Shown here: piece by piece, positions 5,329 to 62,859 of the stretch | How positions within the stretch are numbered: position 1 is the stretch's first letter | Layout of the letters: each line of letters starts with the position of its first letter | Source: Candidatus Obscuribacterales bacterium | GTDB lineage: Bacteria > Cyanobacteriota > Vampirovibrionia > Obscuribacterales > Obscuribacteraceae | Assembly (NCBI GenBank): GCA_965228855.1 | Contig: CBDDIJ010000002.1 | Span: forward strand, 992,001 to 1,056,000 | Length of the DNA: 64,000 nucleotides | Direction: 5' to 3' | Translations under genes and position numbers: made by a program | The notes under the pieces: generated by a model | The model's input: only the letters and a program-made list of their open reading frames with translations | Database searches by the model: none | Told to the model about the DNA's origin: nothing

Positions 5329-5566
5329 TACTATATGGATTACTAGCTTTCCCGTGCTCGGAAAGTCACACAGCTTGGGCGATTAGCTAAACGGACCTGC
5401 TCGGGATAGGCGTCAAAAACGGCTCGTTGTCTACGGTACGTAGACGATTTTCGCTAATTCCGTCATCGGGTCATAGACAACGAGCCTCTGCTTCCGAAAC
5501 CACAATCGTATAAATCCAGACTATTGGGACGTCTCGGCTGTTTAGCGTATACGAAAAAATATAGTA
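5329..5566. repeat. Box-bounded element: box 5329-5345, 54-bp symmetric core 5427-5480, box 5550-5566
   Basis: TACTA-tatggat-TACTA ... ttgtctac-N6-tagacg-N14-cgtcat-N6-atagacaa ... TACGA-aaaaata-TAGTA; also shares cttgggcgatt with the 39-kb units. Confidence 0.7.
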
Positions 5567-5627
5567 GGCGGGTTTGGAGGAAGCGGACCCGAAGCCCTCG
5601 GTTCTGAGAGGTCTTTCGGGTCCGCTT
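5550..5627 (-). terminator. Terminal hairpin (5581-5627) plus TACTA-N7-TAGTA-type box (5550-5566)
   Basis: aagcggacccgaa/ttcgggtccgctt stem; box 14 nt downstream on the minus strand. Confidence 0.75.
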
Positions 5628-5706
5628 TGCTGGTCTACGAAGTCACTCTTCGTAATTCAGGCTCGTGTCTCGCTATCCGCAGACGCGACCGGTTCCACGT
5701 CTTAAC

Positions 5707-6108
5707 TCAATGCACGAGAACGTTTAGCGTGTAAAAACTGCGACCGTTTTTGTTTGCGGGCAAGCGCACTTGAATGACTCCCTGACCGGCGCGGCGAGCG
5801 CGGAAAGTGGCAACGGTTCCGATGGGACCGCCGGGCATTTTTATAAACAGCTCGCCGCGGCCGTCAGTCGCGAAGTGAGTAATTTGAATTCCCTGAGTGC
5901 TGCCCCCGCCTTGTTTCACAAAGGTGAGGGTGCCGCCGGTTGCCAGATTCACTGTCACCGGTGGGTGGTCGACGTCGACTGTGACGTTAAACATTCCGGA
6001 CTGTGGCGGTACTGCGACGGCGACAGAGTTGGGATTGTTGACGATCGCGTAGGACAGGCAGGAAACGGTCATGGCGATGAGGAAGCCGGTGATGATGTTG
6101 CGCTTCAT
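5707..6108 (-). CDS. Hypothetical exported protein
   Basis: MKRNIITGFLIAM signal-like start, GGAG upstream, beta-rich body. Confidence 0.6.
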   Translation of the reverse strand: MKRNIITGFLIAMTVSCLSYAIVNNPNSVAVAVPPQSGMFNVTVDVDHPPVTVNLATGGTLTFVKQGGGSTQGIQITHFATDGRGELFIKMPGGPIGTVATFRARRAGQGVIQVRLPANKNGRSFYTLNVLVH

Positions 6109-6327
6109 GAGAAGCTCCAAAAGCTGCGCCCGTGATTACGAGCGCAAGAACTGAGCAATCGCGTCTATGCGATTCGCTAAGCGACGGACGCAACGAGCGT
6201 CCGCCGCGAGATCTGGTGGCACAACACGACAGCCGCGTGTCGTGATGTTTATGCATATCCGAACGCTGTGCGCGTTCTGATGTTTGTTTGAATCAGGCAG
6301 TTCTGGAACGTAATGCTTATGCCTGAA

Positions 6328-7332
6328 TCATGCCGGCGACTGTGTCGCTTCGGTTTCGCAGATGGTATCGCTGGTGGTGTTGGTGCTGGGGGCTTCTTGT
6401 TGCAAGTCGTCCAGGAACCATTGCGCGTTCAACGCCGCCATGCATCCAGCGCCGGCTGCGGTAATCGCTTGCCGGTAGCGATCGTCTTGAACATCGCCAG
6501 CCGCGAAAACGCCCGGGATGTTCGTTTTGGTTTCGAGGGTCTTGATATAACCTCGTGAGGTCAGTTCAAGTTGCCCCTGGAACAGCGACGTGTTCGGTTC
6601 GTGGCCGATGGCTACGAACAGTCCGGCAATCTCCAAATCAGTGGTTGTCAGCGTCTTCAGGTTTTTGACGCGGACCGCAGTGACACTGCCGGTGCCACCA
6701 TCAAGGATGTCTTCGACGACCGAGTCGAGGACGAACTTGATTTTGGGATTCTCCTGAGCCCGGCTAACCATGATGGACGACGCGCGAAAACTGTCGCGAC
6801 GATGAATGAGAGTCACTGAGTTGGCGAAGCGGGTCAGAAAGATAGCCTCTTCGAAAGCCGCATCGCCACCGCCGACGACTGCAACGTCCTTTCCTCGAAA
6901 GAAGAACCCGTCACAGGTCGCGCAGACGGATACGCCCCGGCCCATCAATGTGCGCTCGGCTGGGATTCCGATCTTGCGGGCGGCGGCGCCGGTTGTGATG
7001 ATTAGTGCATCGCAGAGGATTTCCTGTTCCTCTGTGACGATAGCGATCGGACGCTGATTGAGACGGACGGAAACGGCATTCTCCGAGACAAACGTGGTGC
7101 CGAAGCGAAGCGCTTGCTTGCGCATTTCGTCCATCAGCACTGGTCCTTGAACGCCCTCAGAGAAACCGGGAAAGTTCTCGACTTCCGAAGTCGACATAAG
7201 TTGGCCGCCGGAAGGAATTCCTTCGATGACCACTGGATTGAGCTGACCGCGAGCCGCATAAATAGCTGCGGTTAAGCCGGCAGGTCCACCGCCGAGAATT
7301 GCGAGTTTAGTTTTCATGGACATAGGCTTCAT
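6328..7332 (-). CDS. trxB: Thioredoxin-disulfide reductase
   Basis: GGGPAG, CATCDG, GGGDAA, HRR, GVFAAGD, QAITAAG motifs. Confidence 0.95.
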   Translation of the reverse strand: MKPMSMKTKLAILGGGPAGLTAAIYAARGQLNPVVIEGIPSGGQLMSTSEVENFPGFSEGVQGPVLMDEMRKQALRFGTTFVSENAVSVRLNQRPIAIVTEEQEILCDALIITTGAAARKIGIPAERTLMGRGVSVCATCDGFFFRGKDVAVVGGGDAAFEEAIFLTRFANSVTLIHRRDSFRASSIMVSRAQENPKIKFVLDSVVEDILDGGTGSVTAVRVKNLKTLTTTDLEIAGLFVAIGHEPNTSLFQGQLELTSRGYIKTLETKTNIPGVFAAGDVQDDRYRQAITAAGAGCMAALNAQWFLDDLQQEAPSTNTTSDTICETEATQSPA

Positions 7333-8096
7333 CCTGTAGAATCAGGTTTGGTTTGGCCATTCGTGCAATCGTGCGCGCAGATCCGAGAACGAGGTTTGTC
7401 GTTCGTTTCGGCTTCGTTGCTTCGCAAGGCAGATGCAGCGTGGTTTTTGGTGTTGGCCTTGAGTTTGGAGTGAAAGAGGTGTAGTCAGACCAAGCTACCG
7501 CTGTCAGCCGGGTGAAACCTAGAGGCGTGACAACTGCTCCGGGTTTGTTTTTAGTTCATCTCGTTGCATGCATGCTCTTGTGAAATCGGTGGTGCGTTAG
7601 CTTGTTACTGGAGAGCCAGGCCTAGAGTGTGTTTAGCGGCGTGGAAAAAGCTAAAGGGAGAATAAATTGTTGTGCGAGCTGAGCAAGTTCGCTTGCCGGT
7701 TGAGGTCCGCTATCGGAACTTCGCTAGCGCGATGACGAATAAACTCCTGTTTAAGAACTAAGGCTTATTTGATTGGTAGAGCCATGCGAGATTTAGGTTT
7801 AGAAGTTTATACCTCCAGCCAATAGGTCATGTTGCGCGTTCTTATTGCTGTTTCGTGCACATGAGGCGCGGATAAGGTTTTGATCTCAAACTGCACACAA
7901 GCTATTTGAGTTTCGCTTCAGAAGGCTTAGGGTCGAGTAGTCATCCCCTGTCCCCAGCTTTGCCTGACTCGCTCGCCGCAACTTTAGTCTAGTCATCGCA
8001 AATAGTCGCTAAGCTGGTAGCAATGCCGGATGAAGAAGTTCGTTCACACGCAGCATTAGCTGCGGCTCTCACCAATGTTTGAGCAAAGGAGATAAC

Positions 8097-9707
8097 ATGA
8101 GGCTTTCACTCGAGTCCCTCGGACACATGAGAAGCCGATTCGCTTCGACCGTGATTGGCGCTGACCTGTCGCGGCTTTCGGAGGGCAATCGTCTTGCCGT
8201 CGCCAAACTCATCGAGGCGGCGCGGCTCATGGACGCTGTCTGCGACGAGCAGTATTGGAGCGGTTCTCGCGCCATGCGCTCATCGCTCGAAGCTGACGCC
8301 AGCGAGCTGGGTCAGTCGCGTCTGCAGTTTTTCCGCCTGAATGGCGGTCCCTGGTCGGCTCTCGACCACTACACACCTTTCGTTGAAGATGTTCCGGCGC
8401 GGCCGCCGCACGCCAACTTCTACCCGGAAGACATCACCGCAGCGGAGTTCGAAGCCTGGCTGAAGACCCTGGACGATGCCGAGCGCACCAGGGCAACCGG
8501 CTTTTTCCACGTCATTCGGCGCGACGAGAAGGGCAGTCTGAAGACCGTTCCGTTCTCGGAGGAGTATCGCGAGTTTCTGGAACCGGCGGCACAGCTTCTT
8601 CGCGAGGCTGCCGACCTGACCGATTCCGAGAGTCTGGCGAATTTCCTGCGCCTGCGCGCCGACGCTTTCCTCTCCAACGACTACGCTGCCAGCGACATCG
8701 CCTGGCTGCAGCTCGATTCGCCGATCGAGGTCTGCATTGGACCGTACGAGACCTATCTCGACGAGTTTCGTGGTGCCAAGGCGGCGTTCGAGGCGTACGT
8801 CGCGCTGCGCGATGACGAGAAGACCGACCTGCTCGCCAAGTTCAGCCGCTACATGCAGTTTATCGAAGACCGGCTGCCCATGCACAAGCGCTACCGGAAT
8901 CCGAATGTGGCTTCCGCTGCGCCGATTCGCGTGGTCAATCTGCTTCTCGGTGCCGGCAACGCCAATCACGGCGTGCAGACGGCTGCGTTCAACCTGCCCA
9001 ACGACGACGCTATCGTCGCCGTGCATGGTACGAAGCAGACGATGCTGCGCAATGTTCAGGAGGCGAAGTTCGCCCAGGTGCTGACGCCGATCGGCAAGGA
9101 GCTTCTGCATCCGAGCCATCAGGCGAATCTGTCGTTCGATGCGTTCTTCACCTTCATCCTCATGCACGAGCTGTGTCACGGCCTCGGCCCGCACGGTATC
9201 ACCGTGAAGGGGCGGAAAACGGCTGTGCGTCTCGAACTCAAGGAGACGTATTCCGCGATCGAGGAAGCGAAGGCGGACGTGTGCGGGCTGCTCGCGCTGC
9301 AGATGCTCATCGACGAAGGCGTCGTGGAGCCGAATCTGGCGGACGAGATGTATCACACGTTCGTCGCCGGCATTTTCCGTTCGATTCGCTTCGGCATCGG
9401 CGAGGCGCATGGCGCGAGCAATGTCATGCAGTTCAACTGGCTGCGTGACGCTCGTGCTGTCACCTTCGACACCAAGACGCAGACCTTCAAGGTCAACGTC
9501 AAGCGGGTCAAGGCGGCGCTCAAGGAATTCGCTGCCGTCATTCTGCGCATCGAAGCGCGTGGCGACTACAAGGGCGCGAAGGCGCTGCTGAAGCGCTACG
9601 CCGTCATGCGTCCCGCGACCAAGCGTGCTCTCGATCGGCTGGCTCACGTGCCGGTCGACATCGAGCCCGCGTACACCACGGCGGAGGAACTGACCGCCGC
9701 GAAGTAG
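8097..9707 (+). CDS. Peptidase M49 / dipeptidyl-peptidase III-like metallopeptidase (NUDT3-type HExxH)
   Basis: HELCHGLG, EEAKAD, AFNLPND, IGPYETY motifs; AAGGAG RBS. Confidence 0.88.
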   Translation: MRLSLESLGHMRSRFASTVIGADLSRLSEGNRLAVAKLIEAARLMDAVCDEQYWSGSRAMRSSLEADASELGQSRLQFFRLNGGPWSALDHYTPFVEDVPARPPHANFYPEDITAAEFEAWLKTLDDAERTRATGFFHVIRRDEKGSLKTVPFSEEYREFLEPAAQLLREAADLTDSESLANFLRLRADAFLSNDYAASDIAWLQLDSPIEVCIGPYETYLDEFRGAKAAFEAYVALRDDEKTDLLAKFSRYMQFIEDRLPMHKRYRNPNVASAAPIRVVNLLLGAGNANHGVQTAAFNLPNDDAIVAVHGTKQTMLRNVQEAKFAQVLTPIGKELLHPSHQANLSFDAFFTFILMHELCHGLGPHGITVKGRKTAVRLELKETYSAIEEAKADVCGLLALQMLIDEGVVEPNLADEMYHTFVAGIFRSIRFGIGEAHGASNVMQFNWLRDARAVTFDTKTQTFKVNVKRVKAALKEFAAVILRIEARGDYKGAKALLKRYAVMRPATKRALDRLAHVPVDIEPAYTTAEELTAAK

Positions 9708-9786: not shown

Positions 9787-9859
9787 CTCGGCGCGATGGC
9801 ACCAGAAATGGTGTCATCGCTGCCGAGTCTTCAGAAGGAACCTACTATCGAAGACAGGA
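9787..9859 (+). terminator. Terminal hairpin (9787-9827) plus box (9843-9859)
   Basis: ctcggc-gcgatggcacca GAAA tggtgtcatcgc-t-gccgag; TACTA-tcgaaga-CAGGA 15 nt later. Confidence 0.72.
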
Positions 9860-10488: not shown

Positions 10489-11349
10489 ATGTTTGCTTCC
10501 CAAATAAAACCACCGACTGATGGACGTACCTCCCACACGGAGGCAACAATGTGGGACCCGTTCCTCGCGGACATGGACTCGGCGAAATTTCACATAGTCA
10601 TACATGTGCCATTTATCGCATTGGGTCGGATGCAGTTCTTCTGGCAGCGCTTCGAGCGACTCAGGAAACGCGGTGTAATGATCTGCGTTTTTCTTCGGGA
10701 GCCGGAGGTGTGGGACGGGCGAGATTTCCAGAGTGATCAGGGTTTCGAGGCTATCATTGCGAAGTTGCGAGAGCTTGGAGTTCACGTAACTCCGAAAAAG
10801 CTGATTCACGAAAAATTGGCCATCATTGATGGGCGGATTCTCTGGGACGGCTCGCTCAACTATCTTAGTCACAGGAATACGAGAGAGCGAGCGAATCGGT
10901 TTGCAAGTCGACAAGTAGTGAGGGAAGCCATGAATTTGCATGATATGAATGGTTGTAATCAATGTGATGATAATCGGAAGGCTAGTTCTGCCGGCGGCAC
11001 TGCTGAAGCACTTCTTGGTGGTTTGAGTGTGCATCGCAAGTTGGCGGGCGTATCGCAAGGCACCTTCGCAAAGTCTATAAAAACTAGCCAAGGCTGGGTT
11101 TCGCGTGTTGAAAGCGGAAGGCATGAGAGTGTTTCTGTCCGCACGCTTTGCGAATATTCGCTGGCGCTCGGTGTCCGACCGGTCTTAGTTCCTGACATTT
11201 TGATACCTGCCGTAACCCAGATGCTCGAGGAATACATTCACTCGATGTCCACCGACTCGCAGATTATCGAAAAGTCGCGAACCTTGACCAAACCTAAAAA
11301 AGTGACGGTTAGTGGCAAGACCAATGGCAAGGTGCAAGTCAAGACGTGA
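10489..11349 (+). CDS. PLD-like (single HKD) nuclease domain - CxxC - XRE-type HTH fusion protein (paralogue 1)
   Basis: HEKLAIIDGRILWDGSLN = HxKx4Dx6GSxN; CNQC; RKLAGVSQGTFAKSIKTSQGWVSRVESG. Confidence 0.82.
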   Translation: MFASQIKPPTDGRTSHTEATMWDPFLADMDSAKFHIVIHVPFIALGRMQFFWQRFERLRKRGVMICVFLREPEVWDGRDFQSDQGFEAIIAKLRELGVHVTPKKLIHEKLAIIDGRILWDGSLNYLSHRNTRERANRFASRQVVREAMNLHDMNGCNQCDDNRKASSAGGTAEALLGGLSVHRKLAGVSQGTFAKSIKTSQGWVSRVESGRHESVSVRTLCEYSLALGVRPVLVPDILIPAVTQMLEEYIHSMSTDSQIIEKSRTLTKPKKVTVSGKTNGKVQVKT

Positions 11350-11863: not shown

Positions 11864-11943
11864 TACGCTGGAATATAGTAGGAAAAATTTGGGAAAGTGA
11901 TGGGTGGAGCGAGCCAGCTGGAGAGCCGGTCACACCACCCATC
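11864..11943 (-). terminator. Terminal hairpin (11899-11943) plus box (11864-11880)
   Basis: gatgggtgg/ccacccatc stem; TACGC-tggaata-TAGTA 18 nt downstream. Confidence 0.72.
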
Positions 11944-11962: not shown

Positions 11963-12208
11963 CTACTTGCGCATATCCCGCACGTCCGGGTCGTGGAGAA
12001 ACTGCTTGCCGTCCTTGTCGAACGACCACCGGTTGCTGACCGCGCGGATAGTGGTGATTACGGAAGTATCGTCCTCACCCTGCATCACCAAGCCGAGCTG
12101 CTGACGAACCGTGCGACGATAGCAACGGTTGGCGAGCCGCTTGTCCTGCTTCTCGGACACGGCAGTGGTGTAGCCGCAGATAGGAGTCTTCTTGCGAGAA
12201 TTGCTCAT
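11963..12208 (-). CDS. Small basic hypothetical protein
   Basis: 81 aa, GAGG RBS, C/G-ending codons. Confidence 0.65.
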   Translation of the reverse strand: MSNSRKKTPICGYTTAVSEKQDKRLANRCYRRTVRQQLGLVMQGEDDTSVITTIRAVSNRWSFDKDGKQFLHDPDVRDMRK

Positions 12209-12374
12209 TCGTTCTTTACCTCTTTGATTTTGATTGCCGGAAATCGGTCAGCAACCGACTTCCGCAATAAGCAGGGACAGTGCCGCCATCAAGCGGTTTT
12301 GCGCGGGAAGAACAGCAAGCGTTCAACCGCGAGAACCGCCGGTGGAGGCACCGCGAATCGCAGAATTGCGATTC

Positions 12375-14042
12375 TTACTTGGTCTCGTCTTTCTTGTTCG
12401 CGTTCTGGAAACGCGCCAGAGAGCGGTGGCGCGAGTAGAACACGAAGAGCAGCGTTACCGCGCTCCAGACGACTGCCAGACGCGCGAAGGCTTCCCAGGG
12501 CAGCTCAATCATGAGCCGTCCGGAACCCAGGACGCCGAGCGCAGCGACGACGATCCAGAAGATGCCGCTTCGAAATTCGACGCGGTTTTTCCAGTTGGTT
12601 TCGCGCACGGTTTTGACCAGGACCGTGAGTGAGATGGTGATGAACGCGGTCATCGTTCCGATGTTCGTCAGGTGCATGAGTTCGCCGACCGCGAGCAGTC
12701 CGGTCAGCAGGGCAACGCCGCCGCCGACCATGAGCGTCGCGAGCACGGGGACCTGGCGCTTTTCGCTGACCTTCTCGAATGCCTCGGGAAGGAGCTTGTG
12801 CTGCGCCATGTTGTACACCAGGCGAGTAGTGGAATAGGCGCTGGCGAGCAGCACCGAGATGAGCGCAACGGTTGAGCCGAGCGCGACCCAGACGACCGCC
12901 GATTTGTAGCCCAGGATTTCGAGCGCCTGAGCCATGGGAGCCGCCTCTTCATGCCCTCCTACACCGATTTGCGTGTACGGCACGGCAGCGCTGAGAAAGT
13001 ATGCCGCCACGATGTACATGACGGTCACCGCGACGAGTCCGATGAGCATGCCGACGGGCACATTGCGGCGCGCGTTCTTGGTTTCGCCCGCGGTCATGGT
13101 CGCGAGATCGAGACCGACAAATGCGAAGAATGCGATCGAAGCTCCGGCGAGTGAGCCGGGAAGATGCGCGGGAACGGGTAACGCAAGGTTCGCGGGATCG
13201 TAGTGCTGGGCGAGCAGGAAGACGATGAACGTGATCACGATCAACTTCGTGATTGTGAAAACGTTCGTGAGGAAAGCCGTTTCCTTAATGCCGCGCATGA
13301 GGATGACGGTGATGAGACCGACAACGCCCATGGACAGAAGGTTGATGGACGGCAGTGCGGCCGCAAAACCGATTACGGAAATCAAACCGAAAACGCCGGC
13401 CGCACCGCCCGCGGTTAGGCTAGCGAAGGCAAACCGCTTCTTCTGCGGTTCGAAAGACGTGCGGTTTCTCAGACCGAAGCGGATGAGAAGAGTACTGGTG
13501 ATACCACCGATGATGGCAAGACCCAGTTGACCCCACTGAACTACTTCGGGCGTTTTCGTAATCACATCGGGCAGATGAAGACCGAACGCGATGCGCAGGA
13601 TCATCTTGATGTGGTCCGCCTGGGACACAGCTACAGCAGCTGTGCCGCCGAGGCACTCGAGCATGACGTCGAAGAACATGAGGAATCCGACGAACTGCCC
13701 GAGAACAAGACATGCATAGCTGCCGGTCGAGCCGCTGCGCGACGTGATGCTCGCCATCTTTGCGAGACAGAGAGCCGCCGGCGCACAGATGAGCCCCGCC
13801 CAGAGGAAGGAGACCCAACCGAAAGGACCGGCGTAGTCGCGCGCAATGATACCAGGGGTGGTGAGGATACCGGCGCCGACTGCCTGCGTGATCGTGAAGA
13901 GAACCACCGAAATGAGACCGAGCTGACGGTTGAGTTTGTCCTGCCCGTGCGCCTCTTCGATGTTTATGGTGAGCTTGGCGTCGTGTTTGACACCCGCCAA
14001 CCATTGCCGAACGGATGATAGATTCATCTTCGTTGTCTCCAA
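12375..14042 (-). CDS. APC-superfamily amino acid permease (paralogue 1)
   Basis: VGAGIL, FFAFVGLD, AGETKNARRNVP, many TM segments; start TTG 14042 or ATG 14027. Confidence 0.9.
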   Translation of the reverse strand: METTKMNLSSVRQWLAGVKHDAKLTINIEEAHGQDKLNRQLGLISVVLFTITQAVGAGILTTPGIIARDYAGPFGWVSFLWAGLICAPAALCLAKMASITSRSGSTGSYACLVLGQFVGFLMFFDVMLECLGGTAAVAVSQADHIKMILRIAFGLHLPDVITKTPEVVQWGQLGLAIIGGITSTLLIRFGLRNRTSFEPQKKRFAFASLTAGGAAGVFGLISVIGFAAALPSINLLSMGVVGLITVILMRGIKETAFLTNVFTITKLIVITFIVFLLAQHYDPANLALPVPAHLPGSLAGASIAFFAFVGLDLATMTAGETKNARRNVPVGMLIGLVAVTVMYIVAAYFLSAAVPYTQIGVGGHEEAAPMAQALEILGYKSAVVWVALGSTVALISVLLASAYSTTRLVYNMAQHKLLPEAFEKVSEKRQVPVLATLMVGGGVALLTGLLAVGELMHLTNIGTMTAFITISLTVLVKTVRETNWKNRVEFRSGIFWIVVAALGVLGSGRLMIELPWEAFARLAVVWSAVTLLFVFYSRHRSLARFQNANKKDETK

Positions 14043-14602: not shown

Positions 14603-14671
14603 AACCATCGGATATAGTAAAAGTGCAATGAGGCAAGAACACCGGAAACCCTATGGTTCCCGGCGTTCTTG
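14603..14671 (-). terminator. Terminal hairpin (14634-14671) plus box (14603-14619)
   Basis: caagaacaccggaaacc/ggttcccggcgttcttg stem; AACCA-tcggata-TAGTA 14 nt downstream. Confidence 0.72.
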
Positions 14672-14712: not shown

Positions 14713-14766
14713 CTGTCAATGAGACAGCGACGGAATTTGCTAAATCCGTCGCTCTGGGATTGACAG
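14713..14766. repeat. 54-bp symmetric core (variant)
   Basis: ctgtcaat-N6-gcgacg-gaatttgctaaatc-cgtcgc-N6-attgacag; closely similar to 57626-57679. Confidence 0.7.
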
Positions 14767-50485: not shown

Positions 50486-50500
50486 GTAGGCGCGTTAACT

Positions 50501-52392: not shown

Positions 52393-52995
52393 TTAGGCCG
52401 CCGGAGCGACGGACGCGGGAGCAGGCTGCGTTGCGAACGGCGCGATGGGCTCGATTTCGTCGATCAAGCCCTCGGCGAGAGCCTGCTCGGCGGTGAGCCA
52501 CCAGTCGACGCCGCCGGCGACGTTGGTGTTGATCTTCTCCAGCGTCAGACCGTTGGCGACGTTGCCCGTGCGGCTGCACAGGATGGCGCTGGTCTGGGCT
52601 TGGAGCTGCTCGCAGCGGCGGAGTTCCGCGCGCATCTGGGACAGGGTGCCCTTCATCTCGGAGCTGACTTCGTGAATCAGCAGCCAAGCGTGGGCGCCCA
52701 TGACGCGCACGTCGCCCGCCTGCAGCAGCCAGCCGGCGCAGGACGCGGAGCGACCGTGGACGACGACGGTCACATGGTGACCGGCAGCGCGCAGCATGTT
52801 GATCTGGTCATACATGTACAACGCGTCCAGGATGTTGCCACCCTGACTGTTGAGGACGATCTTGACCTTCCGGTTCGGGTTGTCCCGGCACCAGTTGATG
52901 ATCATGATCATGAAATCCACCGCCGACGTCTGGTTGATGCCGGTGGCGAACACGAAAACACCCTTCAGAGGGTCAGTTTGGATTGCGTTTTCCAT
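52393..52995 (-). CDS. Divergent ClpP-like (S14) protease
   Basis: LNSQGG, SASCAG (Ser), LIHE (His), DWWLTAEQAL..GLIDEI (Asp). Confidence 0.85.
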   Translation of the reverse strand: MENAIQTDPLKGVFVFATGINQTSAVDFMIMIINWCRDNPNRKVKIVLNSQGGNILDALYMYDQINMLRAAGHHVTVVVHGRSASCAGWLLQAGDVRVMGAHAWLLIHEVSSEMKGTLSQMRAELRRCEQLQAQTSAILCSRTGNVANGLTLEKINTNVAGGVDWWLTAEQALAEGLIDEIEPIAPFATQPAPASVAPAA

Positions 52996-53152
52996 AGCTT
53001 TCTACTTTCGTCCGGCAGGTCATGCGGCTGCGACGCGCCTCTTGTTGGGCGCTGCAGCGGCTAAACCCTTGGGATGTTTGGGTTGAAGCTCGGAAAGAAA
53101 GTCTCCGAGCCGGTTAAGAAAACAAGTTATGCGCGCGCTGCGTTGAAGACAG

Positions 53153-53980
53153 CTACTGCGCCGTCCAGCCGCCATCGACTGTTATCGAGGAGCCGGTGAT
53201 GTTCGAAGCGGCTTTGCTGGCGAGGAAGACGACTGTGTCTCCCAATTCGTCGACTTCGACGAACCGCTTGCTGGGCTGCTTCGCCGACAACAACTCTTCG
53301 GCGGCAATCTCTTGCGAGACGCCTTTCCGCTGAGCCAGGTCGGTTATCTGCTTCTCCACGAGCGGGGTTCGCACCCAGCCGGGGCAGACTGCGTTGACCG
53401 TAATTCCGGTCTCCGCATTTTCGAGCGCTGCGACTTTCGTGAGCCCGATGAGCCCATGCTTGGCAGCGACGTACGCGGCTTTCTGGGCTGACGCCACGAG
53501 ACCGTGTACGGATGCGATGTTGACGATGCGCCCGAAGCCGTTGCGTTTCATATGCGGCAGTGCTGCGCGCATGGTGTGAAACGCAGAGCTCAGATTTATC
53601 GCCAGAACGGCGTCCCACTTTTCGACTGGAAAGTCCTCGACAGAGGCTGTGTGCTGGATACCGGCGTTGTTGACGAGGATGTCGACGCTGCCCAGCTCGT
53701 TCACGGCGAATTCGACCAGTTCCGCGATTTCTTGCGGCTTGGTCATGTCGGCACCGTGGTAAACGATTGTGCGTTGCGAGCTTTCGGCGAGTTCGGTCTT
53801 TACCCGCTCCACCTCAGCTGTGTCCGCCAAACCGTTCAGCACAATGTGGCAGCCGTTTGCAGCTAGACGTCTTGCGATACCTAAACCGATACCGCTTGTC
53901 GAGCCGGTCACGACTGCCACTTTGTTATCGAGAATTTTTGAGTGCTGTTCTTTTGTTGCACTCGCTTCCAGTTGAGACAT
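53153..53980 (-). CDS. bdhA: D-3-hydroxybutyrate dehydrogenase (SDR)
   Basis: TGSTSGIG, NNAGIQH, SVHGLVAS..KAAYVAAKHG, CPGWVRTPLV. Confidence 0.92.
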   Translation of the reverse strand: MSQLEASATKEQHSKILDNKVAVVTGSTSGIGLGIARRLAANGCHIVLNGLADTAEVERVKTELAESSQRTIVYHGADMTKPQEIAELVEFAVNELGSVDILVNNAGIQHTASVEDFPVEKWDAVLAINLSSAFHTMRAALPHMKRNGFGRIVNIASVHGLVASAQKAAYVAAKHGLIGLTKVAALENAETGITVNAVCPGWVRTPLVEKQITDLAQRKGVSQEIAAEELLSAKQPSKRFVEVDELGDTVVFLASKAASNITGSSITVDGGWTAQ

Positions 53981-54006
53981 CCGTTCTCCTCTTCCTCCGC
54001 GCCAGT

Positions 54007-54879
54007 TCAGGCGCTACACAGGCGTCCTTCGGCCTTCGCGTGAGCGATGACTTGCTTCGCGGTATTGTAGCCGTTTTCCACCATCCGCATGCAGGTTGCT
54101 TCGGAGATTCCGAAGTTGAGACCAGCCACTTCCGGCAGACCCGTCTCGATGACGAGGTGACGCTTGGTGTCGACGTAACGCGAGTTGCCGGCGACAGGGA
54201 AGAAGAGTTCGCGGCAGTGGAAGTACAGGTCGATCGGGTACTTCCACTCCTTGGGCATCGCCGACGCCGGGCGGAACTTGCTGACGAACGCCGGCCGGTC
54301 GAAGAACTCGGTCGGGTTGTAGTGGTAGTAGGCGCCATCGACGAGCAGGCGCGGACGCCCGTTGTCCATGAACCACTCCGGCTGGAACACGCCCGGTGGC
54401 GAGCCCGAAGCCGTCAGCGCCGTCGCCAGGTCGTAGTCCTCGCCCTCGAACAGCACCGGGTCACGCGTGAAGTAGTCGCACGCGAGAATCTTCAGGCGCT
54501 TGTTCGGCTTGAGACCGTACTGGGCGATGAGCTTGGTGATGAACGGCTTGAGCGAGAACGTGCCGCCGACCGACATGGCGATGGGGTCAGCGAGGCGAGT
54601 GCCCTCGAGAACAGCCGCAAGGTCATCCCGCATCCCGCGCATGGCGAGGAACACCGGAATCATGTCCTTGGGCTTGTAGCCGTTGGTGAAGAAGGCAGCG
54701 GTCATGCTGCCGGCCGAGACGCCGAGAACATCACCGACTTCGATGCCCTCTTCCATGAACGCCTCGATAACGCCGAAGTGGTGGAAGATGTTCCAGCCAC
54801 CGGCACCGAAAACCATCGGGGAGCCGTTATGCAGGCATTGGTCCTGACGGTTGTCGGCAACTTGGAGAGTTTTGGTCAT
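54007..54879 (-). CDS. Patatin-like phospholipase (paralogue of 21378..22289)
   Basis: GAGG, GVSAG, LVDGAYYH; GAGGAGG RBS. Confidence 0.85.
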   Translation of the reverse strand: MTKTLQVADNRQDQCLHNGSPMVFGAGGWNIFHHFGVIEAFMEEGIEVGDVLGVSAGSMTAAFFTNGYKPKDMIPVFLAMRGMRDDLAAVLEGTRLADPIAMSVGGTFSLKPFITKLIAQYGLKPNKRLKILACDYFTRDPVLFEGEDYDLATALTASGSPPGVFQPEWFMDNGRPRLLVDGAYYHYNPTEFFDRPAFVSKFRPASAMPKEWKYPIDLYFHCRELFFPVAGNSRYVDTKRHLVIETGLPEVAGLNFGISEATCMRMVENGYNTAKQVIAHAKAEGRLCSA

Positions 54880-55416
54880 GATGACCTCCTCTAGTTGCAG
54901 GTTGATCAATAGTCGCCTGGTGTGAGCCTCGGAGAGTACCCAGCAGTTCAGCGACAGCGTAAAGAACAAACCCCGTGACCGTCCGAATGTCCATCGACAA
55001 GGCTATTTGAGCGCATGTTGGTGATTCGGGATGGCTTTTGGCTTTTGATCCAAATTTCTTTATGAGGGATTGCAACATCACCGTACACAAAGCACTTGCA
55101 AGAACGAATAGTATTTCCAAGCGCTTCGAGTGTTTGTCTTCCTTGAGTGAAATCATGAAACGTAGAAGGCGTCAACGTTTCAGACTTCTCATAGACCTCT
55201 TACTTAAAGCTGTTCTAGAACTCTTTGAACATTGCATAGTTCGCATAGCATCAGAAGCTCATAGATCTTTCAAACGGCAAGAGACTGAACCTGCGGCAAT
55301 TTGGCCGATCCGTTAGTGACTTGATGAGCTGCGCTAGGATTTTCGGAGCGAGGTGTTTTGGTTCAGTCGTGGCAGGGATGGCATCTCACTCGCCTTTCTG
55401 GCTTTTCGAACTGCAA

Positions 55417-57520: not shown

Positions 57521-57594
57521 TACTATATGGCATCAGAGAGGCGCGACAGGAACGAAGACTGCACCGCCCTGATATAGAGGTGTGCAGCTTCGTT
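57521..57594 (-). terminator. Terminal hairpin (57551-57594) plus half-degenerate box (57521-57537)
   Basis: aacgaag-ctgcac/gtgcag-cttcgtt stem; TACTA-tatggca-TCAGA. Confidence 0.55.
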
Positions 57595-57625
57595 ACGAGG
57601 AAGGCTCTCGCTTATTGCCCGAGTC

Positions 57626-57679
57626 CTGTCAATCCTGGAGCGACGGTTTTAGCGAATTCCGTCGCTCTCTCGTTAATGG
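57626..57679. repeat. 54-bp symmetric core (variant)
   Basis: ctgtcaat-cctgga-gcgacg-gttttagcgaattc-cgtcgc-tctctc-gttaatgg. Confidence 0.68.
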
Positions 57680-57751: not shown

Positions 57752-58438
57752 CTAGTCATCCGGCGTGCTGCGGGGCGGCGTGCGCGGCTGTTTGTCTTCA
57801 AGGCGTTTGCGCAAGAACTTGGCGAGGAGCACGGTGAAGAGCAGTCCGCCGATGAATCCGCCGAGGTGGGCGAAATAGGCGATGCCGTTTCGCGTTCCGC
57901 TGTCCAGGTAGATGCTGATCAGCTGGTCCGTCACCCAGTAAAGGACGAACAGGGAGCCGAGCATGCGTGGCATGGTGAGGCGCTGTCCGAGGCAGAACGT
58001 CACGACCAGGAACGCCCCCATTACGCCGGAGATAGCACCGGAAGCGCCAACCAGCGGTGTGTAATCGAAAGCGTGAAACAGGTAATGACCGAACGAGCTC
58101 GCAAAGCCGCTTACCAGGTAAATGGCGAGAAAGCGCGCTGAGCCTAGCTCGCGTTCGACCAGTATGCCCATGACGAGGAGGAGCGCCATGTTGTTGAAGT
58201 AGTGGTCGAAGCCCGCATGCAGGAAGGTAGAGGTCAGCATGGTAAGCAGGTTGTAACCGATGTCCGGCAGGCTGCCCGACATAATCGCCTCGGTCAGGCG
58301 ACGCGGAATCAGTCCCCATTCGATTGTCATCCAGGGAATCCGAGTGGCGATTTCCTGGAAGATCGAGAGGAAGAGTACGGCGAGGTTCGCAAGGACCAAG
58401 CCTGGCAAAACAAACAGGTCAGATCTGCGAGTGTTCAC
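57752..58438 (-). CDS. Rhomboid intramembrane serine protease
   Basis: FLHAG..H..NM, GASGAI, AHLGG. Confidence 0.92.
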   Translation of the reverse strand: MNTRRSDLFVLPGLVLANLAVLFLSIFQEIATRIPWMTIEWGLIPRRLTEAIMSGSLPDIGYNLLTMLTSTFLHAGFDHYFNNMALLLVMGILVERELGSARFLAIYLVSGFASSFGHYLFHAFDYTPLVGASGAISGVMGAFLVVTFCLGQRLTMPRMLGSLFVLYWVTDQLISIYLDSGTRNGIAYFAHLGGFIGGLLFTVLLAKFLRKRLEDKQPRTPPRSTPDD

Positions 58439-58613
58439 TGCGGATACTCTCTTTGCGAGTTCAGTTATTGTGAGAAAGGCGAGCCGACCGTGTTCCGCTG
58501 CTGAGCCGGTTTCGGCTCGTGAGCAAGTTACGGTTTTGACCGGGTTCCGGCTCTTAGCAGGTTCCGGCTACTGACCGGGATTTCGGCGGCTCGCCCCTCA
58601 CGTGGAAAAGCAG

Positions 58614-59393
58614 TTACTTCGTGTCGTCCTGGTCGGCCAGGGAAGTCGTGTCGCAGGCAGGACCGGTGATGCCGTCCTTCAAGCGTTCGATCAGAGCTTC
58701 CGGCGTGACAGGTTCGAGTTCGTGCACAAAAATGGGCTTGCCGAACGTGATGGTCACGCCATGACGCCAGGTAAGCTTCATCTTCAGGAAGTCGGTCGCA
58801 GACTCTGGATCGCGTGTCCCGTAGCAGATTTGAATCGGGACGATACCGACGGTTTCCTTGTGCTCAAGCGCATCGCAGGCGCCAATCGCAATCCAGGCGG
58901 CGCCCTTCTTGAACTCGAGATACTGGCCGGTCGGGCTGATCTTGCCCTCGGGGAAGAGCGTTACCGGCGCTCCTTTCACGACCAGGTTGATGGATGCCGG
59001 AATCACTGAGCGTCCGCGGGAGCGGTCCACAGGATAGGAGCCGGCAGCTCCCATCAGGATAGCCTTCAAGCCGCCCATGCCGCGCATCTCTTCGACGGCG
59101 CTCATGAAGCGGGTTCCAAGAGGCATAAACGGGTATAGAACAATCGCATCCAGCATGGCGCTGTGATTCGGGCAGTAGATGATTCGTCCGGCGGCTTTGA
59201 GATTCTCGCGACCGACGATTGTCACTTTGCCGACCTGAATCCAGGTCCACAAGCGCGACAAACCTTTCACGAATCTCTGGAAACCGCGATGTTCGGTCGG
59301 AATAAAGCCACTGGTCGTACAATTCGCCGCATATTCGCGGTAGCGCGCCAGCCATGATTTTCGTGGCTTGGCGTTTCGGTTGAAGATACCCAT
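58614..59393 (-). CDS. plsC: Lysophospholipid/1-acyl-G3P acyltransferase (PlsC family)
   Basis: NHSAMLD, PVDR, FPEG, FKKG. Confidence 0.85.
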   Translation of the reverse strand: MGIFNRNAKPRKSWLARYREYAANCTTSGFIPTEHRGFQRFVKGLSRLWTWIQVGKVTIVGRENLKAAGRIIYCPNHSAMLDAIVLYPFMPLGTRFMSAVEEMRGMGGLKAILMGAAGSYPVDRSRGRSVIPASINLVVKGAPVTLFPEGKISPTGQYLEFKKGAAWIAIGACDALEHKETVGIVPIQICYGTRDPESATDFLKMKLTWRHGVTITFGKPIFVHELEPVTPEALIERLKDGITGPACDTTSLADQDDTK

Positions 59394-60099
59394 GAGTTAA
59401 CTCCCGCCCGGGGTGGGGCATGGTTGTGCGCGTGCCTGACGGCAGCGCGAATGACTCGGCTGTTGTTGAGCGCTCGCCGTGTTGATACGGATGCAGGCGC
59501 CGGCGTGAATTGGATGCTCGCCGGTGGCGGATTCCGGTTCTACGTCAGCGGTTTGGGGCGCGGCACGAGTCGAAACTGGGTTACGGTTGGGACCATAACG
59601 CAGGGCTTTCAAGTAAATTTGCTGAATGAATTAGCTGAGGTGCTTCTGCTTGAGTTTCTATTTGAATAAAAGGCGATAAACACTAGCAAAGGTCGGCCAG
59701 GGGTTTAAACGCTTCGTGCGAGGTGAACTATTTATGTTTTCTTTAGTATTCAAGGGTGCTGAAGGTAAAATCGGCGGCGAAAGGCAGTGAATTCGGGCTG
59801 TTTACGGCAGGGCGTTCAAGTGAACTGAACGCTTGGAAACCGCGCCCCGTGGGCGGCTTTGGATATTTCACACTTAGCGCAAGGTTGCTGAATCAGCCGC
59901 CGTCAGGCTGCCAGTAGGAGTCTCGGGTCTGTTTGTGCCTGACTCCGCTTTGTGTATGGTGGATATATATCTGCACTCGCTTTGCACTCAAGTAAAAAAC
60001 CGAGCAAAACTCTAACCACGCTGCCTCACAACGGAATAAGATCTAGACGCTACACGGCGACTAGTGACTCACTCCGTGCCAGCGAAAGGGAGATAGCCT

Positions 60100-60786
60100 A
60101 TGGGCGTGATTATCAAAATGCTGCAATGGCTGTTTCTGCCCTGGCTGAATCGCAAGTTCAAAGGACTTGCAGCAGCGTATGGACAGGAACAAGCGAAGCC
60201 TCACTTCGAGGTCGAAAGAAAGTACCCCGTTTCGCCAGAAGAATTCCACAAGTTGTCCGGACGTCTCAGAGACCTCGGCTTCTCGAAGAAATCGAAGGCG
60301 ACCATCGTTGACACTTTCTTGCCGGCCGAAAAGGACGGCGACATGGTTCGTCTTCGTGAAGAAACCGTGGACGGGCTCACCGTGACTGTCATCACACTCA
60401 AGGAGTGGGTGGACGTCGACGGCGAGCGCGAACGCAAAGAACGCGAAAGCGACCCGATCGACTCTGTCACCAAGGACACCCTCATGTCCCTCGGGCGCCG
60501 TCTTGCGACGGAACCGCTCATGTCCTTCAGCAAAGACCGCACCACATTCGTCGGCCGCCGCGACAAGCGAGCAGTCACAGTGGCGCTGGACGTTGCTTCC
60601 GGACTTGGTGATTACTCCGGCAATTACCTCGAAGTCGAGTTGATTGTCGAGCGTCAGGAAGACGTCGCCGAAGCCAGAGCCTTCGTCGAAAGTTTCGTCA
60701 CGGAACTGCTCGACTCACATCGCGAGTGCGCCATCTCCTACATGGAGATGCTCAAGCGCTCTCGGAAGCCGTCGAGCAAGAACTAA
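60100..60786 (+). CDS. CYTH domain protein (class IV adenylate cyclase/triphosphate tunnel family)
   Basis: EVERKY (ExExK), VRLR, YLEVE, SY.EML. Confidence 0.8.
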   Translation: MGVIIKMLQWLFLPWLNRKFKGLAAAYGQEQAKPHFEVERKYPVSPEEFHKLSGRLRDLGFSKKSKATIVDTFLPAEKDGDMVRLREETVDGLTVTVITLKEWVDVDGERERKERESDPIDSVTKDTLMSLGRRLATEPLMSFSKDRTTFVGRRDKRAVTVALDVASGLGDYSGNYLEVELIVERQEDVAEARAFVESFVTELLDSHRECAISYMEMLKRSRKPSSKN

Positions 60787-61188
60787 ACGAAACGAAGTCG
60801 GACAGGAGCCAAAAGCTCTTGTTTGGCGAAACCGAAAACAGCTAAGCGCAGTCTGAAGCGAGTTCCGAAAGGAGCTCGTTTTTTGTTGTGCTGAAACTGT
60901 TTCACAACACAGGTTTGTTCACGACCTGCAACCAAACTGAGGAAAGTCCTCGTGCGGAGTGGATAGGCGTGGGCAACCGCGCTTGTAACCAGGGTATGTC
61001 ATTGCGCCGAATTCGACGCCGTAGCGATACGGTGTCGCGTTCTACGCTGACTGTTACCCGTTTTCATTAACCCGGGTGTGTCTGGGGCGAGACGACGATC
61101 GCGTGTGCGGTCGAGCTGTTCGCGCCCTAATTGCCCCACAAAGACTTGGACCGGGGCTTTTGCACGGTCCGCCAAAAAGGAAATAGTT

Positions 61189-62676
61189 ATGAATACGAGA
61201 ACTAACAACGCAGCACCGGAGCGCGAACTTCCGTTCGTCGTCGTCAACCTCGACACAATGACTCCGGCAGAAGAGCAGTACGCCGAACGCTTCGACAGCC
61301 GTCTCATCGGACAGCCCGAAGCCCGGCAGATCGCACTCGACGTGCGAGCCAAGTATCGCAACCCGCTTCGCAACAAGGAATACCCGCTGGGCGTTTACTA
61401 CTGCGTCGGCAAGTCCCGCCGCGGTAAGTCGCTCCTGGCACAGGTCCTGGCGGAGCTGTTCCACGGCAACAAGAAGGCTCTGACTCGCATCACCGCCGAG
61501 GATTACCTCGACGACAGTCAGATGTCTGATCTCACCGGTGCGACGCCGAAGTATGTCGGCTACCGCGCTCCGGTCGACGTGAGCAAGATGTCCAGCGAGG
61601 AACTCGCGAAGACTGACGGCTACAGCAAGGTGTCGCAGTGGAACCGCACCCGTGTGCGCCTGGGCTCGAAAGAGTTCATCGACGTGGTCGTCATCGAAGA
61701 GTTCGAGAAGTCGGGCTACGACTTCTTCAAGTTCTGGATGGAGATCTTCGACAAGGGCGCCAAGACCCTGGGTAACGGCGAGGAATGCGACTTCAGCAAC
61801 ACCGTGTTCATCCTCACCTCCAACATCGGCATGGAACGTGTCGAGCGCGAAGAGAAGGGTGGCATCGGTTTCACCAGCACGCAGAAGACGCTGACCCACA
61901 AGGAAATCGTCAACATCGTCTCCCAGGAGATGAAGCGTGCGTACAAGCCCGAGTTCCGCAACCGTCTCGACGGCGTGGTGGTCTTCCGTGAGCTCTCCAA
62001 CGAAGATGTTGCGAAGATCGTCGATGTCGAAGTCGACAAGATCGAGCAGCGCATCGTTGACCAGATGCCCCGCGGTCAGGACTTCACGCTCGATGTGCAG
62101 GCTTCGGCCCGCGAATTCCTGCTCGCCAAAACGGGTGGTGAAGTCGCGGAACTGAAGCGCGTCATCGAAGCGCACGTGATGAACTCGCTGGGTCGTATGC
62201 TCGACCCGGACAACGAGGAGCGCATCCTGGGCGGTGATCTCGTGCGCGTCAGCTGGGACGGGAAGTCGGACAAGCTCACCTTCGCCATCGCGCGTGGGCA
62301 CGGCGACGTCGACGGCAACCTGGAAGGTCTCAAGCTGTACGGTGGCGACACGGCTGGTTCGCTTCGCGGACTGTCGCTCCAGCGCCGTGTGGCAAGAGCC
62401 CGCATGCAGGCTCGTCGCGAGGCTGACAAGGAATGGAACCTGGTTCTGACCTTCGCCAGCAAGGACGAGTTCGAAGAGGAGGCTCCCGCTCTGATCCATG
62501 ACGTGAAGAGCGTCTTCGAGATCCGGGTGAAGGGCTATGCGATCATGGAAGAGGCGCCGTATTCGGTGACTCTGATGGTGGTCGCCTCCGACGACCAGAT
62601 CAAGCTGGCCAAGGAGCTCTATCCGGAGCTGGAGGCCAAGCCGATCACGCGTGCGCTCGTGCCCGTGAAACAGTAA
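61189..62676 (+). CDS. ClpA/B-like single (D2-type) AAA+ protein with C-terminal extension
   Basis: LIGQPEA, GKSRRGKS, KYVGY, DFSNTVFILTSNIG, KPEFRNRLD. Confidence 0.8.
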   Translation: MNTRTNNAAPERELPFVVVNLDTMTPAEEQYAERFDSRLIGQPEARQIALDVRAKYRNPLRNKEYPLGVYYCVGKSRRGKSLLAQVLAELFHGNKKALTRITAEDYLDDSQMSDLTGATPKYVGYRAPVDVSKMSSEELAKTDGYSKVSQWNRTRVRLGSKEFIDVVVIEEFEKSGYDFFKFWMEIFDKGAKTLGNGEECDFSNTVFILTSNIGMERVEREEKGGIGFTSTQKTLTHKEIVNIVSQEMKRAYKPEFRNRLDGVVVFRELSNEDVAKIVDVEVDKIEQRIVDQMPRGQDFTLDVQASAREFLLAKTGGEVAELKRVIEAHVMNSLGRMLDPDNEERILGGDLVRVSWDGKSDKLTFAIARGHGDVDGNLEGLKLYGGDTAGSLRGLSLQRRVARARMQARREADKEWNLVLTFASKDEFEEEAPALIHDVKSVFEIRVKGYAIMEEAPYSVTLMVVASDDQIKLAKELYPELEAKPITRALVPVKQ

Positions 62677-62717
62677 CAACTGCAGCGGAGGTTGCTATTG
62701 CAAAACGGACCTATTCG

Positions 62718-62859
62718 ACTTCGCGCCAGTCCGGTGAAAACGCCGATGACGACTGGCGCGAAGTGCGGAGGCGAGCCTTCGACCGCAAACCGAACACGCT
62801 GATAGCCCCCGGCTCTCAGCGTGTTCTCCTTTCGAAATACAGCACTATATAAGATAGTA
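62718..62859 (+). terminator. Two hairpins (62718-62764, 62792-62826) plus box (62843-62859)
   Basis: 14-bp perfect stem; gaacacgctga/tcagcgtgttc stem; CACTA-tataaga-TAGTA 16 nt later. Confidence 0.78.

Follow-up and report, generated by a model that had tools for sequence, protein, structure and literature searches.

The window analysed here is a 64-kb stretch (C2:992001-1056000) of the 8.2-Mb genome G000, in which transcription units rich in G+C at third codon positions (GC3) end in a short palindromic box, TACTA-N7-TAGTA. The host belongs to Candidatus Obscuribacterales, and the best relatives of its MoxR protein were 61-91% identical, followed by unrelated phyla at ≤39%. Gene classes and 3′ ends, here and below, were derived with our own simple gene caller and our own folding, the ends being deduced from hairpins rather than mapped. 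A sequence-only reading had claimed twelve boxes, each 13-19 nt (once 29 nt) past a hairpin; all twelve were present where it had placed them, the box at 52211 being the only perfect one and those at 48704 and 57521 carrying 3 mismatches. A hairpin (-19 to -36 kcal/mol) indeed preceded 12/12 boxes, while the distance was 11-18 nt for 10/12, 23 nt at 50578 and 29 nt at 48704. The gene map agreed with that reading in that each GC3-rich unit of the window terminates in a box and that four divergent pairs are bracketed by boxes, the latter following from the position of the boxes at the 3′ ends of units. Matches to the box numbered 9 at ≤1 mismatch and 24 at ≤2, where 30 approximate dinucleotide shuffles averaged 0.0 and 3.1, and nine additional boxes (5329, 22580, 39154, 39363, 39572, 62917, 63124, 63283 and 63316) raised the number in the window to 21. 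Two partner repeats absent from the earlier account were also found, D3 (10 copies) and D1 (6 copies), and an Rfam search of the window at the gathering score returned tRNA only, with no other known structured RNA.

At the left end of the window (strand signs are given where assigned), a box at 5329..5345 (+), with its exact half on the left, forms the outer end of a box-D3-box unit; the D3 copy (5428..5479) is 52 bp long and consists of half-sites (TG[GT]C / CG[GT]C) arranged as two inverted pairs. The box at 5550..5566 (-) is separated by 14 nt from the hairpin that ends the thioredoxin-reductase unit, which belongs to a divergent pair (5707..9707) made up of a hypothetical gene and thioredoxin reductase (-), both merely borderline GC3-rich (0.64-0.67), and a peptidase M49 gene (+, GC3 0.79) with the promoter motif of the class, described below, from near 7767 (+). 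A box at 9843..9859 (+), 14 nt past a hairpin, is followed by a low-GC3 gene for a phospholipase D (PLD)-like/helix-turn-helix (HTH) protein (10489..11349, +), at which place the related genome G007 has just a D3 between the same two boxes. The second of these, at 11864..11880 (-), lies 18 nt past the hairpin of a GC3-rich unit of an amino-acid permease and a small gene (11963..14042, -). The box at 14603..14619, 14 nt past its hairpin, has a D3 on the gene side, a variant located between stop codon and terminator (14714..14765) that is present as six tandem copies in G007, and the neighbouring divergent GC3-rich pair (14832..22289) contains another permease (-) and a leucyl aminopeptidase-to-patatin operon (+), with a class promoter motif near 16834 (-). 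The two permeases (12375-14042 and 14832-16559) are tandem paralogues, ~70% alike and with one box each; congeners have one permease.

A gene-less box-D3-box unit follows at 22341..22596, with box 22341 (+), D3 22438-22489 and box 22580 (-). Further on, a D3 (26835-26886) and the box at 26955, 11 nt past a hairpin (26835..26971, -), adjoin a GC3-rich unit (27084..29023, -) with a gene for an S1-domain protein (GC3 0.96), tRNA-Trp (28063-28134) and two hypothetical genes. Four boxes (39154, 39363, 39572 and 39780) and three D3 (39241, 39450 and 39658) occupy 39154..39796 as 209-bp tandem box-D3 units, next to a divergent GC3-rich pair (39864..48612) of a MoxR-DUF58-vWA operon (-) and two small genes (+). 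The weak box at 48704, 29 nt past its hairpin, precedes two D1 copies (48793 and 48895), each with two CTGCA-N8-TGCAG dyads (48704..48944, +), after which come a GC3-rich GH130 gene with its box at 50578 (49430..50594, +), a second low-GC3 PLD-like/HTH gene with four D1 repeats of 102-bp period at 51743-52098 (50618..52098, -), and the perfect box (52211..52227). In the congener G002 the orthologues of 52393 and 48139 have one box between their terminators; at window 48704-52227 these terminators are kept apart by an additional 3.5 kb of DNA. The remaining features are a GC3-rich unit of patatin, SDR and ClpP-like protease genes (52393..54969, -); box 57521 with its hairpin and a D3 variant at 57627-57678 (57521..57678); a divergent GC3-rich pair (57752..62676) of acyltransferase and rhomboid genes (-) and CYTH and Clp-type AAA ATPase genes (+), with a class promoter motif near 59711 (-); and five boxes (62843, 62917, 63124, 63283 and 63316) with two D3 (62992 and 63151) in 159-bp and 33-bp tandem units (62843..63332).

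The box and its gene class around the origin

A matrix built from the twelve sites was scanned over the genome and gave 17-41 matches per 100 kb within C2:0-1.1 Mb, as opposed to 0-12 in the rest of the genome, and after refinement on this origin zone it identified ~295 sites in 1.1 Mb around oriC, which was located by the GC-skew turn at C2:789 kb, with dnaA at 793 kb. The sequence-only reading had missed the restriction of both box and GC3-rich genes to the origin zone, and also that these genes are not the housekeeping core. In G000 the box is asymmetric, with the consensus C-TACTA-TA-N5-N-M-G-T-A and a nearly invariant left half; most relatives have a more even palindrome. The 7-bp spacing gave 173 matches at ≤1 mismatch in G000, compared with 37-94 for 14 other spacings (0-14).

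The association with high-GC3 units and with terminators that had been predicted from the window held at the scale of the zone. A box (by matrix or at ≤2 mismatches) was present at 83/91 3′ ends of GC3-rich units (73/91 by matrix alone), compared with 18/96 5′ ends, 23/181 operon-internal gaps and 23/185 low-GC3 gaps in the same zone; outside it the matrix matched 44 of 3378. The gap between hairpin and box peaked at 12-17 nt (median 15 nt), with 75% of 114 within 11-24 nt, and in G041, which represents another genus, 68% of 37 fell within this range, compared with 13/90 in a random control. All class ends with a box had a hairpin of -15 kcal/mol or better (77/77, versus 74/144 of other convergent ends), and a logo of the hairpin region showed no conserved sequence. 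Where two GC3-rich units converge, both terminators had a box at 10-26 nt in 15/25 junctions, 13 of these as separate boxes.

The box extends across the order, for which it should be kept in mind that related genomes are not independent samples. Exact TACTA-N7-TAGTA was found 984 times in 107 genomes of the order, compared with 130 for N8, and N7 outnumbered N8 in 94 genomes and fell short of it in 4, with a tie in 9. On long contigs the exact boxes clustered around dnaA, with 43/43 in G041 located within 2.41-3.06 Mb of 5.04 Mb, and likewise 10/10 in G012, 2/2 in G016, 11/11 in G065, 9/9 in G091 and 17/19 in G115; clustering was weaker in G067 (3/5) and in the fragmented G088 (3/9 on the dnaA contig). 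Within 340 kb of the G041 zone, N7 gave 57 matches at ≤1 mismatch, spacings 5, 6, 8 and 9 gave 2-5, spacing 4 gave 22 and spacing 10 gave 15. In the fetched stretches of the congeners G001, G002, G004 and G005, single and more symmetric boxes were present at orthologous operon ends despite changed neighbours, and there was no D3 match in these stretches. A search beyond the order at class level gave counts mostly at or below a reversed-pattern control, with no spacing control in that search. On strong sequence evidence, the box is a real, order-wide and apparently undescribed cis-element; the literature searched, which most subscription papers lie outside, held no description of it or of a two-class origin zone.

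Genes with GC3 >0.7 occurred only in the origin zone, in the part of it that continues at the end of C5, and on the foreign-looking C4 and C1. The second half of C4 and C2:1-62000 have a GC content of 0.63-0.64, conjugative-element integrases, arsenic/mercury genes and codon use unlike the host, and collinearity between G007 and G000 begins at C2:61.5 kb; both are probably foreign DNA in the assembly and were left out of counts from the spacer-homology comparison onward. The class comprises ~450 zone genes, and the scan took in those of the window and 285 from fetched loci, ~48 of which belong to the foreign-looking first 62 kb. It is rich in peptidases (FtsH, S41, M1, M3, M4, M17, M48, M49, M50, TldD/E and ClpP-like) and also includes patatins, phospholipase D, glycosidases, MoxR-vWA operons, PrkA-YeaH-SpoVR, NAD salvage, thioredoxins, an S1 protein and a sigma factor. 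A core-genome identity was ruled out, as rpoB, ribosomal proteins, XerC/D, dnaN and yidC are low-GC3. Two further observations concern individual loci: a GC3-rich NAD salvage cluster with cytidylyltransferase-like, NAMPT-like, PRPP-synthetase-like and NAD synthetase genes lies at G000:C2:225708-232414 (L114:5708-12414), and a reverse transcriptase gene (G000:C2:944459-945628) ends at a box, its last 386 bp being missing in G007. Far from the origin zone lie tRNA gene arrays at G000:C3:724518-727973 (21 calls) and 1529761-1530653 (5 calls), and the ribosomal-protein cluster (G000:C3:2592618-2607730) and the single 16S gene (C5:632289-633803) are also far from oriC, with the digestive class located beside it.

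Several comparisons indicate that the class is old and native. The aminopeptidase falls in a clade of 74 matches at 51-97% identity, followed by a drop to ~40%, in which those named by taxon are Obscuribacterales or cyanobacterial metagenome-assembled genomes. In G041, with a background GC3 of ~0.42, 44/48 class genes with a match mapped to G000 class genes at a median identity of 40% (a further 55 had no match in G000), and the GC3 of orthologues correlated between the two genomes (Spearman 0.65, n=104). A recent foreign or phage origin was rejected on the aminopeptidase clade and on PHROGs, which were matched by only 1/36 proteins (mostly class members blank in Pfam); a plasmid search with the aminopeptidase returned distant matches alone.

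The class also differs from the rest of the genome in its signals for expression. Codon use departed from that of host ribosomal-protein genes (AAG 0.82 versus 0.43 and CAG 0.85 versus 0.39, with GAG also preferred), and operon-internal spacers were richer in GC (0.57 versus 0.47-0.49). The σ70 -10 word TA[CGT]AAT was found in 0.5% of 190 class leaders, compared with 17-21% in comparison leaders, and ribosome-binding sites were present for 69% of 320 class genes versus 39-40%. A promoter motif, TTGA-N20-TAGG(T/G)T, was present in 32-37% of held-out class leaders versus 2-7% of controls, and in G041 in 43% of 42 class leaders versus 16% of 51. From this motif, the missing -10 words, the strong ribosome-binding sites and the codon bias we infer that the GC3-rich genes form a second transcriptional programme. 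The RpoH/RpoD-like sigma factor encoded within the class (C2:706806) was rejected as its universal driver, as close orthologues were found only in G002, G005, G006 and G007, other genomes having matches at 42-47%.

Partner repeats and insertion elements

D3 is present in 225 copies in G000 and is distributed like the box. The strict D3 pattern was found 117 times in G000, 80 times in G007 and twice in G006, and in none of the other 38 genomes searched. On the degenerate-half side, 55-95 bp away, a D3 accompanies 203/295 boxes, and 149/173 zone D3 have such a box. The distance from D3 start to box was 56-58, 67-70, 78-82 or 89-92 bp, with none at 59-65, 71-75 or 83-86, that is, in steps of one helical turn. 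D3 positions 8/64 and 22/42 assort independently in the 225 copies, and this lack of covariation between the halves argues for a double-stranded protein site; an attC-like hairpin was rejected on the same ground. D1 has a D3-like layout (two dyads 33-34 bp apart) with another sequence, in arrays of 102-103 bp period; its copies lie at window 48793-48944 and 51743-52098, with arrays at G000:C2:145600, 318180, 572600, 907850 and 1488770-1490045 and at C5:885500 and 1605000.

Box and D3 also form composites. Among inward-facing box pairs, 62/74 are gene-less box-D3-box units, and relatives have one box at these places; the inverted units measure 180-330 bp, and tandem D3/box copy numbers vary between G000 and G007. 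One box-D3 unit outside the zone was checked: G000 and G007 both have it and 5/5 other congeners lack it, a gain at a new site indicating that the composite spreads. In G041, box pairs surround a different internal repeat (G041:C1:2442400-2442560, 2539197-2539484, 2603628-2603828 and 2660922-2661142), so that such composites arose in another genus too. Two IS110-family elements, 52% identical, lie beside a D3 in 7/7 copies (type 1 at G000:C2:774714, 858575 and 1120784; type 2 at G000:C2:197250 and 987926 and C5:861234 and 1461455), and each of the four insertions examined cuts a G[AC]C half-site of a D3, a site that is empty in G007. The PLD-like/HTH genes of the window belong to a set of five divergent genes, 25-30% identical (window 10489-11349 and 50618-51481; G000:C2:67368, 103101 and 917915); 5/5 are in the origin zone, 4/5 are near boxes and one replaces a D3. 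They possibly encode selfish nucleases.

A proposed boundary behind terminators and its alternatives

The behaviour of the box over evolutionary time bears on what may bind it. The free positions of the box (7-11, -2, 17 and 18) are purine-rich on the leading strand, flipping at oriC regardless of the direction of the gene or the exact half, with a leading-strand purine excess of 0.34 versus 0.016 ± 0.07 in flanks (215 thinned boxes). Over 800 kb of G000 and G007, 78/78 large blocks were collinear without inversion, and 133/150 boxes aligned straight through. In these 133 boxes, substitutions per site were 0.00-0.07 in the exact half and 0.09-0.17 in the spacer, and rose to a peak of up to 0.26-0.31 at 2-4 bp outside either box edge, fading over ~12 bp; the reference rates were 0.055 for intergenic DNA and 0.09-0.15 for fourfold sites. 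Small indels reached 0.05-0.12 per site on the terminator side of the box versus 0.01, and were rare within it, and alignment breaks often ended 1-25 bp before a box. The flank peaks did not depend on fork direction in this comparison; left and right changes were independent, and no whole-box swaps were seen that could have produced the peaks. The simplest reading would be a footprint of ~40 bp around a selected site, where a resident protein hinders repair; repeated cutting beside the box is the alternative cause.

From the observed site with its spacing, placement at 3′ ends, confinement to the origin, conservation and separate gene class, we propose the following mechanism, to which we give a little under an even chance: a conserved dimeric protein on the box would form a terminator-coupled 3′ boundary of the second programme. 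The predicted chromosomal protein, conserved across Obscuribacterales, would bind a box kept ~15 nt behind the intrinsic terminator of each unit of a programme that comprises several hundred GC3-rich protease, lipase, glycosidase, salvage and stress genes in the origin-proximal 0.65-1.1 Mb, its units being set apart by a promoter motif of their own and by the strength of their ribosome-binding sites and hairpins. To judge from the mutation footprint and the fork-direction bias at free positions, the protein would be bound most of the time. It may stop RNA polymerase at the hairpin, and the boundary may then shield interleaved housekeeping genes and convergent units from read-through during strong transcription of the programme, probably at a stage of feeding or starvation. 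In the lineage of G000 and G007, D3 would be the site of a second protein, helically phased with the box and relaxing the half-site that faces it, and the two may have spread together as tandem and inverted composite repeats that are targeted by IS110. A roadblock or insulator had already been suggested by the sequence-only reading, and support for it is indirect, coming from the presence of boxes at 3′ and not 5′ ends, the tight hairpin distance, conservation across genera and the protein-like footprint; the blocking of polymerase itself is a prediction.

Several observations weigh against this mechanism. The box-binding protein was not found in the scans made, which covered part of the zone proteins; as ~52 class genes (C2:270-380 kb), 78 class genes (C2:845-1120 kb and C5) and 149 low-GC3 genes of the zone lay outside the Pfam scan, a zone-encoded binder may have been missed. 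U-tracts ahead of boxes contained 3.8 T in 8 nt, compared with 3.5 at other terminators (p 0.38), and so were no weaker, which gives no indication that the box makes up for weak terminators. A well-spaced box for both terminators was lacking at 10/25 convergent junctions, ~35 low-GC3 zone genes in G000 are also followed by a box (merely 31% of 29 at the tight distance), and ~30 box-D3 units lie outside the zone, several of them 10-27 nt after a stop codon. In G000 the exact half is oriented towards the terminator, but in three related loci it points away at one operon. Finally, a pure roadblock does not explain the confinement to the origin zone, the fork-polar spacers, or the gene gains and losses abutting boxes.

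Alternatively, the boxes may form a dispersed, centromere-like array in the manner of RacA-ram or RicO-ricS, through which a protein compacts or tethers the origin without ParB, the position behind terminators merely being safe from transcription. We regard this as unlikely; it is compatible with a terminator-coupled boundary. Boxes are confined to 0.65-1.4 Mb around dnaA in six further genomes, the polarity of the spacer is relative to the fork, ParB_N was not found in G002, G012, G041 and G065 and in G000 only on the foreign-looking C4, and the best parS of G000 was a single 2-mismatch match, with none good. The box itself was rejected as a ParB-parS site, since it lacks the parS consensus and no chromosomal ParB gene was found to go with it in the genomes named. 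Known origin-proximal arrays are smaller, with 25 RacA sites in ~600 kb and 9 intergenic RicO sites in ~700 kb (bioRxiv 10.64898/2026.03.06.710092). Set against an anchor, box density is flat (20-37 per 100 kb) and tracks GC3-rich units rather than distance from oriC, low-GC3 terminators in the same zone mostly lack a box, and convergent terminators often each keep their own.

The core sites of tyrosine recombinases (lambda att, Xer cer/pdif, CTnDOT and integron attC) provide the features for another comparison, as the box could be a crossover site that delimits cassettes, in which case D3 would serve as the arm-type or accessory site and the overlaps would tolerate mismatches. The likeness lies in inverted half-sites around a fixed-length spacer of 7 bp (5+7+5), a phased partner with four half-sites, and one site per unit 3′ end as for attC; gene-less box-D3-box units where relatives have one box, gene gains and losses beside boxes between G000 and G007, the alignment breaks just before boxes, blocks shuffled between genera, and the gain of a box-D3 unit and targeting of D3 by IS110 would also fit. 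Same-orientation distant neighbours shared 3.36 of 7 spacer bases versus 2.71 in shuffled pairs (n=64), but inverted neighbours shared them at the shuffled level (2.12 versus 2.09, n=56; 2.26 versus 2.28, n=73), and the replichore, not gene or exact half, sets spacer polarity, which accounts for part of the same-orientation excess. In addition, most 5′ ends lack boxes, 78/78 large blocks are collinear with G007, changes peak outside the spacer and independently on both sides, and the partner is a non-covarying site rather than a hairpin. Contigs of three runs matched the window without differences over long pieces and showed no box-to-box joint over 19.9 kb, which is a weak test. The proposal of the sequence-only reading that boxes delimit recombining cassettes was thus mostly not borne out, and we consider it improbable.

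The zone also encodes two Xer-like proteins (G000:C2:369775-370713 and 923144-924055), which have K for the first catalytic R, no loop K, and Q for H, a tentative point against recombination at the box; their family is present in 54/107 genomes and was not found in box-rich G041. As universal binders of the box they were rejected on this absence, and they are candidates for the G000 lineage only. Several congeners carry the gene at C2:369775-370713 with 89-92% identity, a value well beyond that of typical genes and suggestive of a DNA-binding but non-catalytic role for its product. XerC/D-like and prophage-type integrases are encoded elsewhere in G000, and a search by canonical patterns gave no convincing dif site near the terminus.

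It is similarly doubtful that a nuclease or relaxase cuts beside the box in a special life stage, with units excised, amplified or exported, for example into prey, and D3 acting as a position-flexible enhancer. The symmetric substitution peaks 2-4 bp outside the half-sites, the terminator-side indels and the alignment breaks before boxes would fit such cutting, as would the digestive cargo and a codon use unlike that of host ribosomal-protein genes. However, impaired repair beneath a bound protein accounts equally well for the mutations in the flanks, there is no matching site at 5′ ends, and the units have no σ70 -10 elements, so that a foreign polymerase would read them poorly. The contigs of the three runs had flat depth and no box-to-box joint over window 4001-23900, which is weak evidence, as contigs drop rare forms.

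An origin as ends of a mobile element, either an IS630-type MITE (a miniature transposable element with inverted repeats) duplicating TA in CTAG or a repeat like the repetitive extragenic palindromes (REPs) and bacterial interspersed mosaic elements (BIMEs), without host function and inserting in a safe zone behind terminators, is very unlikely for the box itself. The flanks in G000 read C-TA-CTATA...TATAG-TA-G, and inverted units of 180-330 bp, tandemly expanded arrays and copies that turn up at new sites are in keeping with mobility, yet relatives carry single boxes without any element at orthologous places, G000 has no DDE_3 transposase match, none of the 16 G000/G007 junctions inspected had an empty CTAG site, and the box core is under purifying selection. 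Such a reading can describe the lineage-specific D3 layer, not the box. REPs are not known to be confined to the origin. The least probable reading, that the TACTAT half is a σ70 -10 element in sense or antisense, draws on TAnnnT occurring in both directions in the G000 sequence TACTATA and on a D3 phasing that would suit an activator site, and founders on the dyad with a variable sixth base (not a conserved T) in relatives, a logo without a -35 signal, and a next gene on the degenerate side that points away from the box in just 95/295 cases.

When set beside known systems, the box lacks one or more defining features of att/attC sites, IS630 MITEs, REPs and parS. By analogy it is nearest to roadblock terminators in placement, to RacA-ram and RicO-ricS in chromosomal range, and to REP/BIME in its composite layer. 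The Pol I factor TTF-I on the Sal box is a case of roadblock termination. Roadblocks by yeast Reb1p and Rap1p and by several bacterial proteins are likewise described, the bacterial cases named there being repressors or nucleoid proteins at single loci (PMC10310618); the box shares the sequence-specific site at a short fixed distance behind the transcript 3′ end and differs in its hundreds of sites behind intrinsic terminators of one gene class in one zone, roadblocking by it being predicted. RacA-ram of Bacillus subtilis and RicO-ricS of Staphylococcus aureus are alike in having many short sites over 0.6-0.7 Mb around oriC (bioRxiv 10.64898/2026.03.06.710092; PMC6593407), but the former of these sources places ram sites in coding sequence and gives ricS as not palindromic, while the boxes are at least 10 times as numerous, tied to the terminators of one class, and fork-polar. 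REP/BIME also have hundreds of intergenic copies, often between convergent genes, in protein-binding mosaic clusters (PMC3184786), and REP-type repeats are described as targets of IS110-family elements (PMC12288879). The conserved unit here is instead a 17-bp gapped dyad without a conserved stem-loop, the adjacent hairpins being unrelated terminators and the D3 halves lacking covariation. The FapR operator TTAGTA-N5-TACTAA is a 17-bp dyad of the same two pentamers, but with the halves in opposite order, another spacing and a location in promoters of fatty-acid operons in Bacillales (PMC5028935).

Taken as a whole, it is plausible, if somewhat less than evenly likely, that two gene programmes are interleaved around the origin, the second closed unit by unit by a protein-bound 3′ boundary, and that the same protein may organise or anchor the origin in place of ParB-parS. 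The box reveals an unexpected chromosome layout, shared across the order, in the non-photosynthetic sister group of cyanobacteria: around the origin, fast-evolving digestive genes with distinct promoters and codon use alternate with housekeeping genes, and one conserved site punctuates them. If the boundary is terminator-coupled, bacteria would possess in it a counterpart to the roadblock terminators or insulators of eukaryotes that serves a whole programme, and, together with the programme itself, it would make up a genome-wide and programme-specific insulator or termination-factor system of a kind not described in bacteria; if the boxes anchor the origin, they would constitute a ParB-independent centromere. 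A boundary protein that also anchors the origin may confine, amplify or expose the zone in a distinct life stage. The GC-rich blocks are native: binning should keep them, and they should not be read as recently acquired DNA. The box itself offers a 17-bp bait for the protein, a sequence marker for units of the programme, and a clue to an unobserved life stage of the Obscuribacterales.

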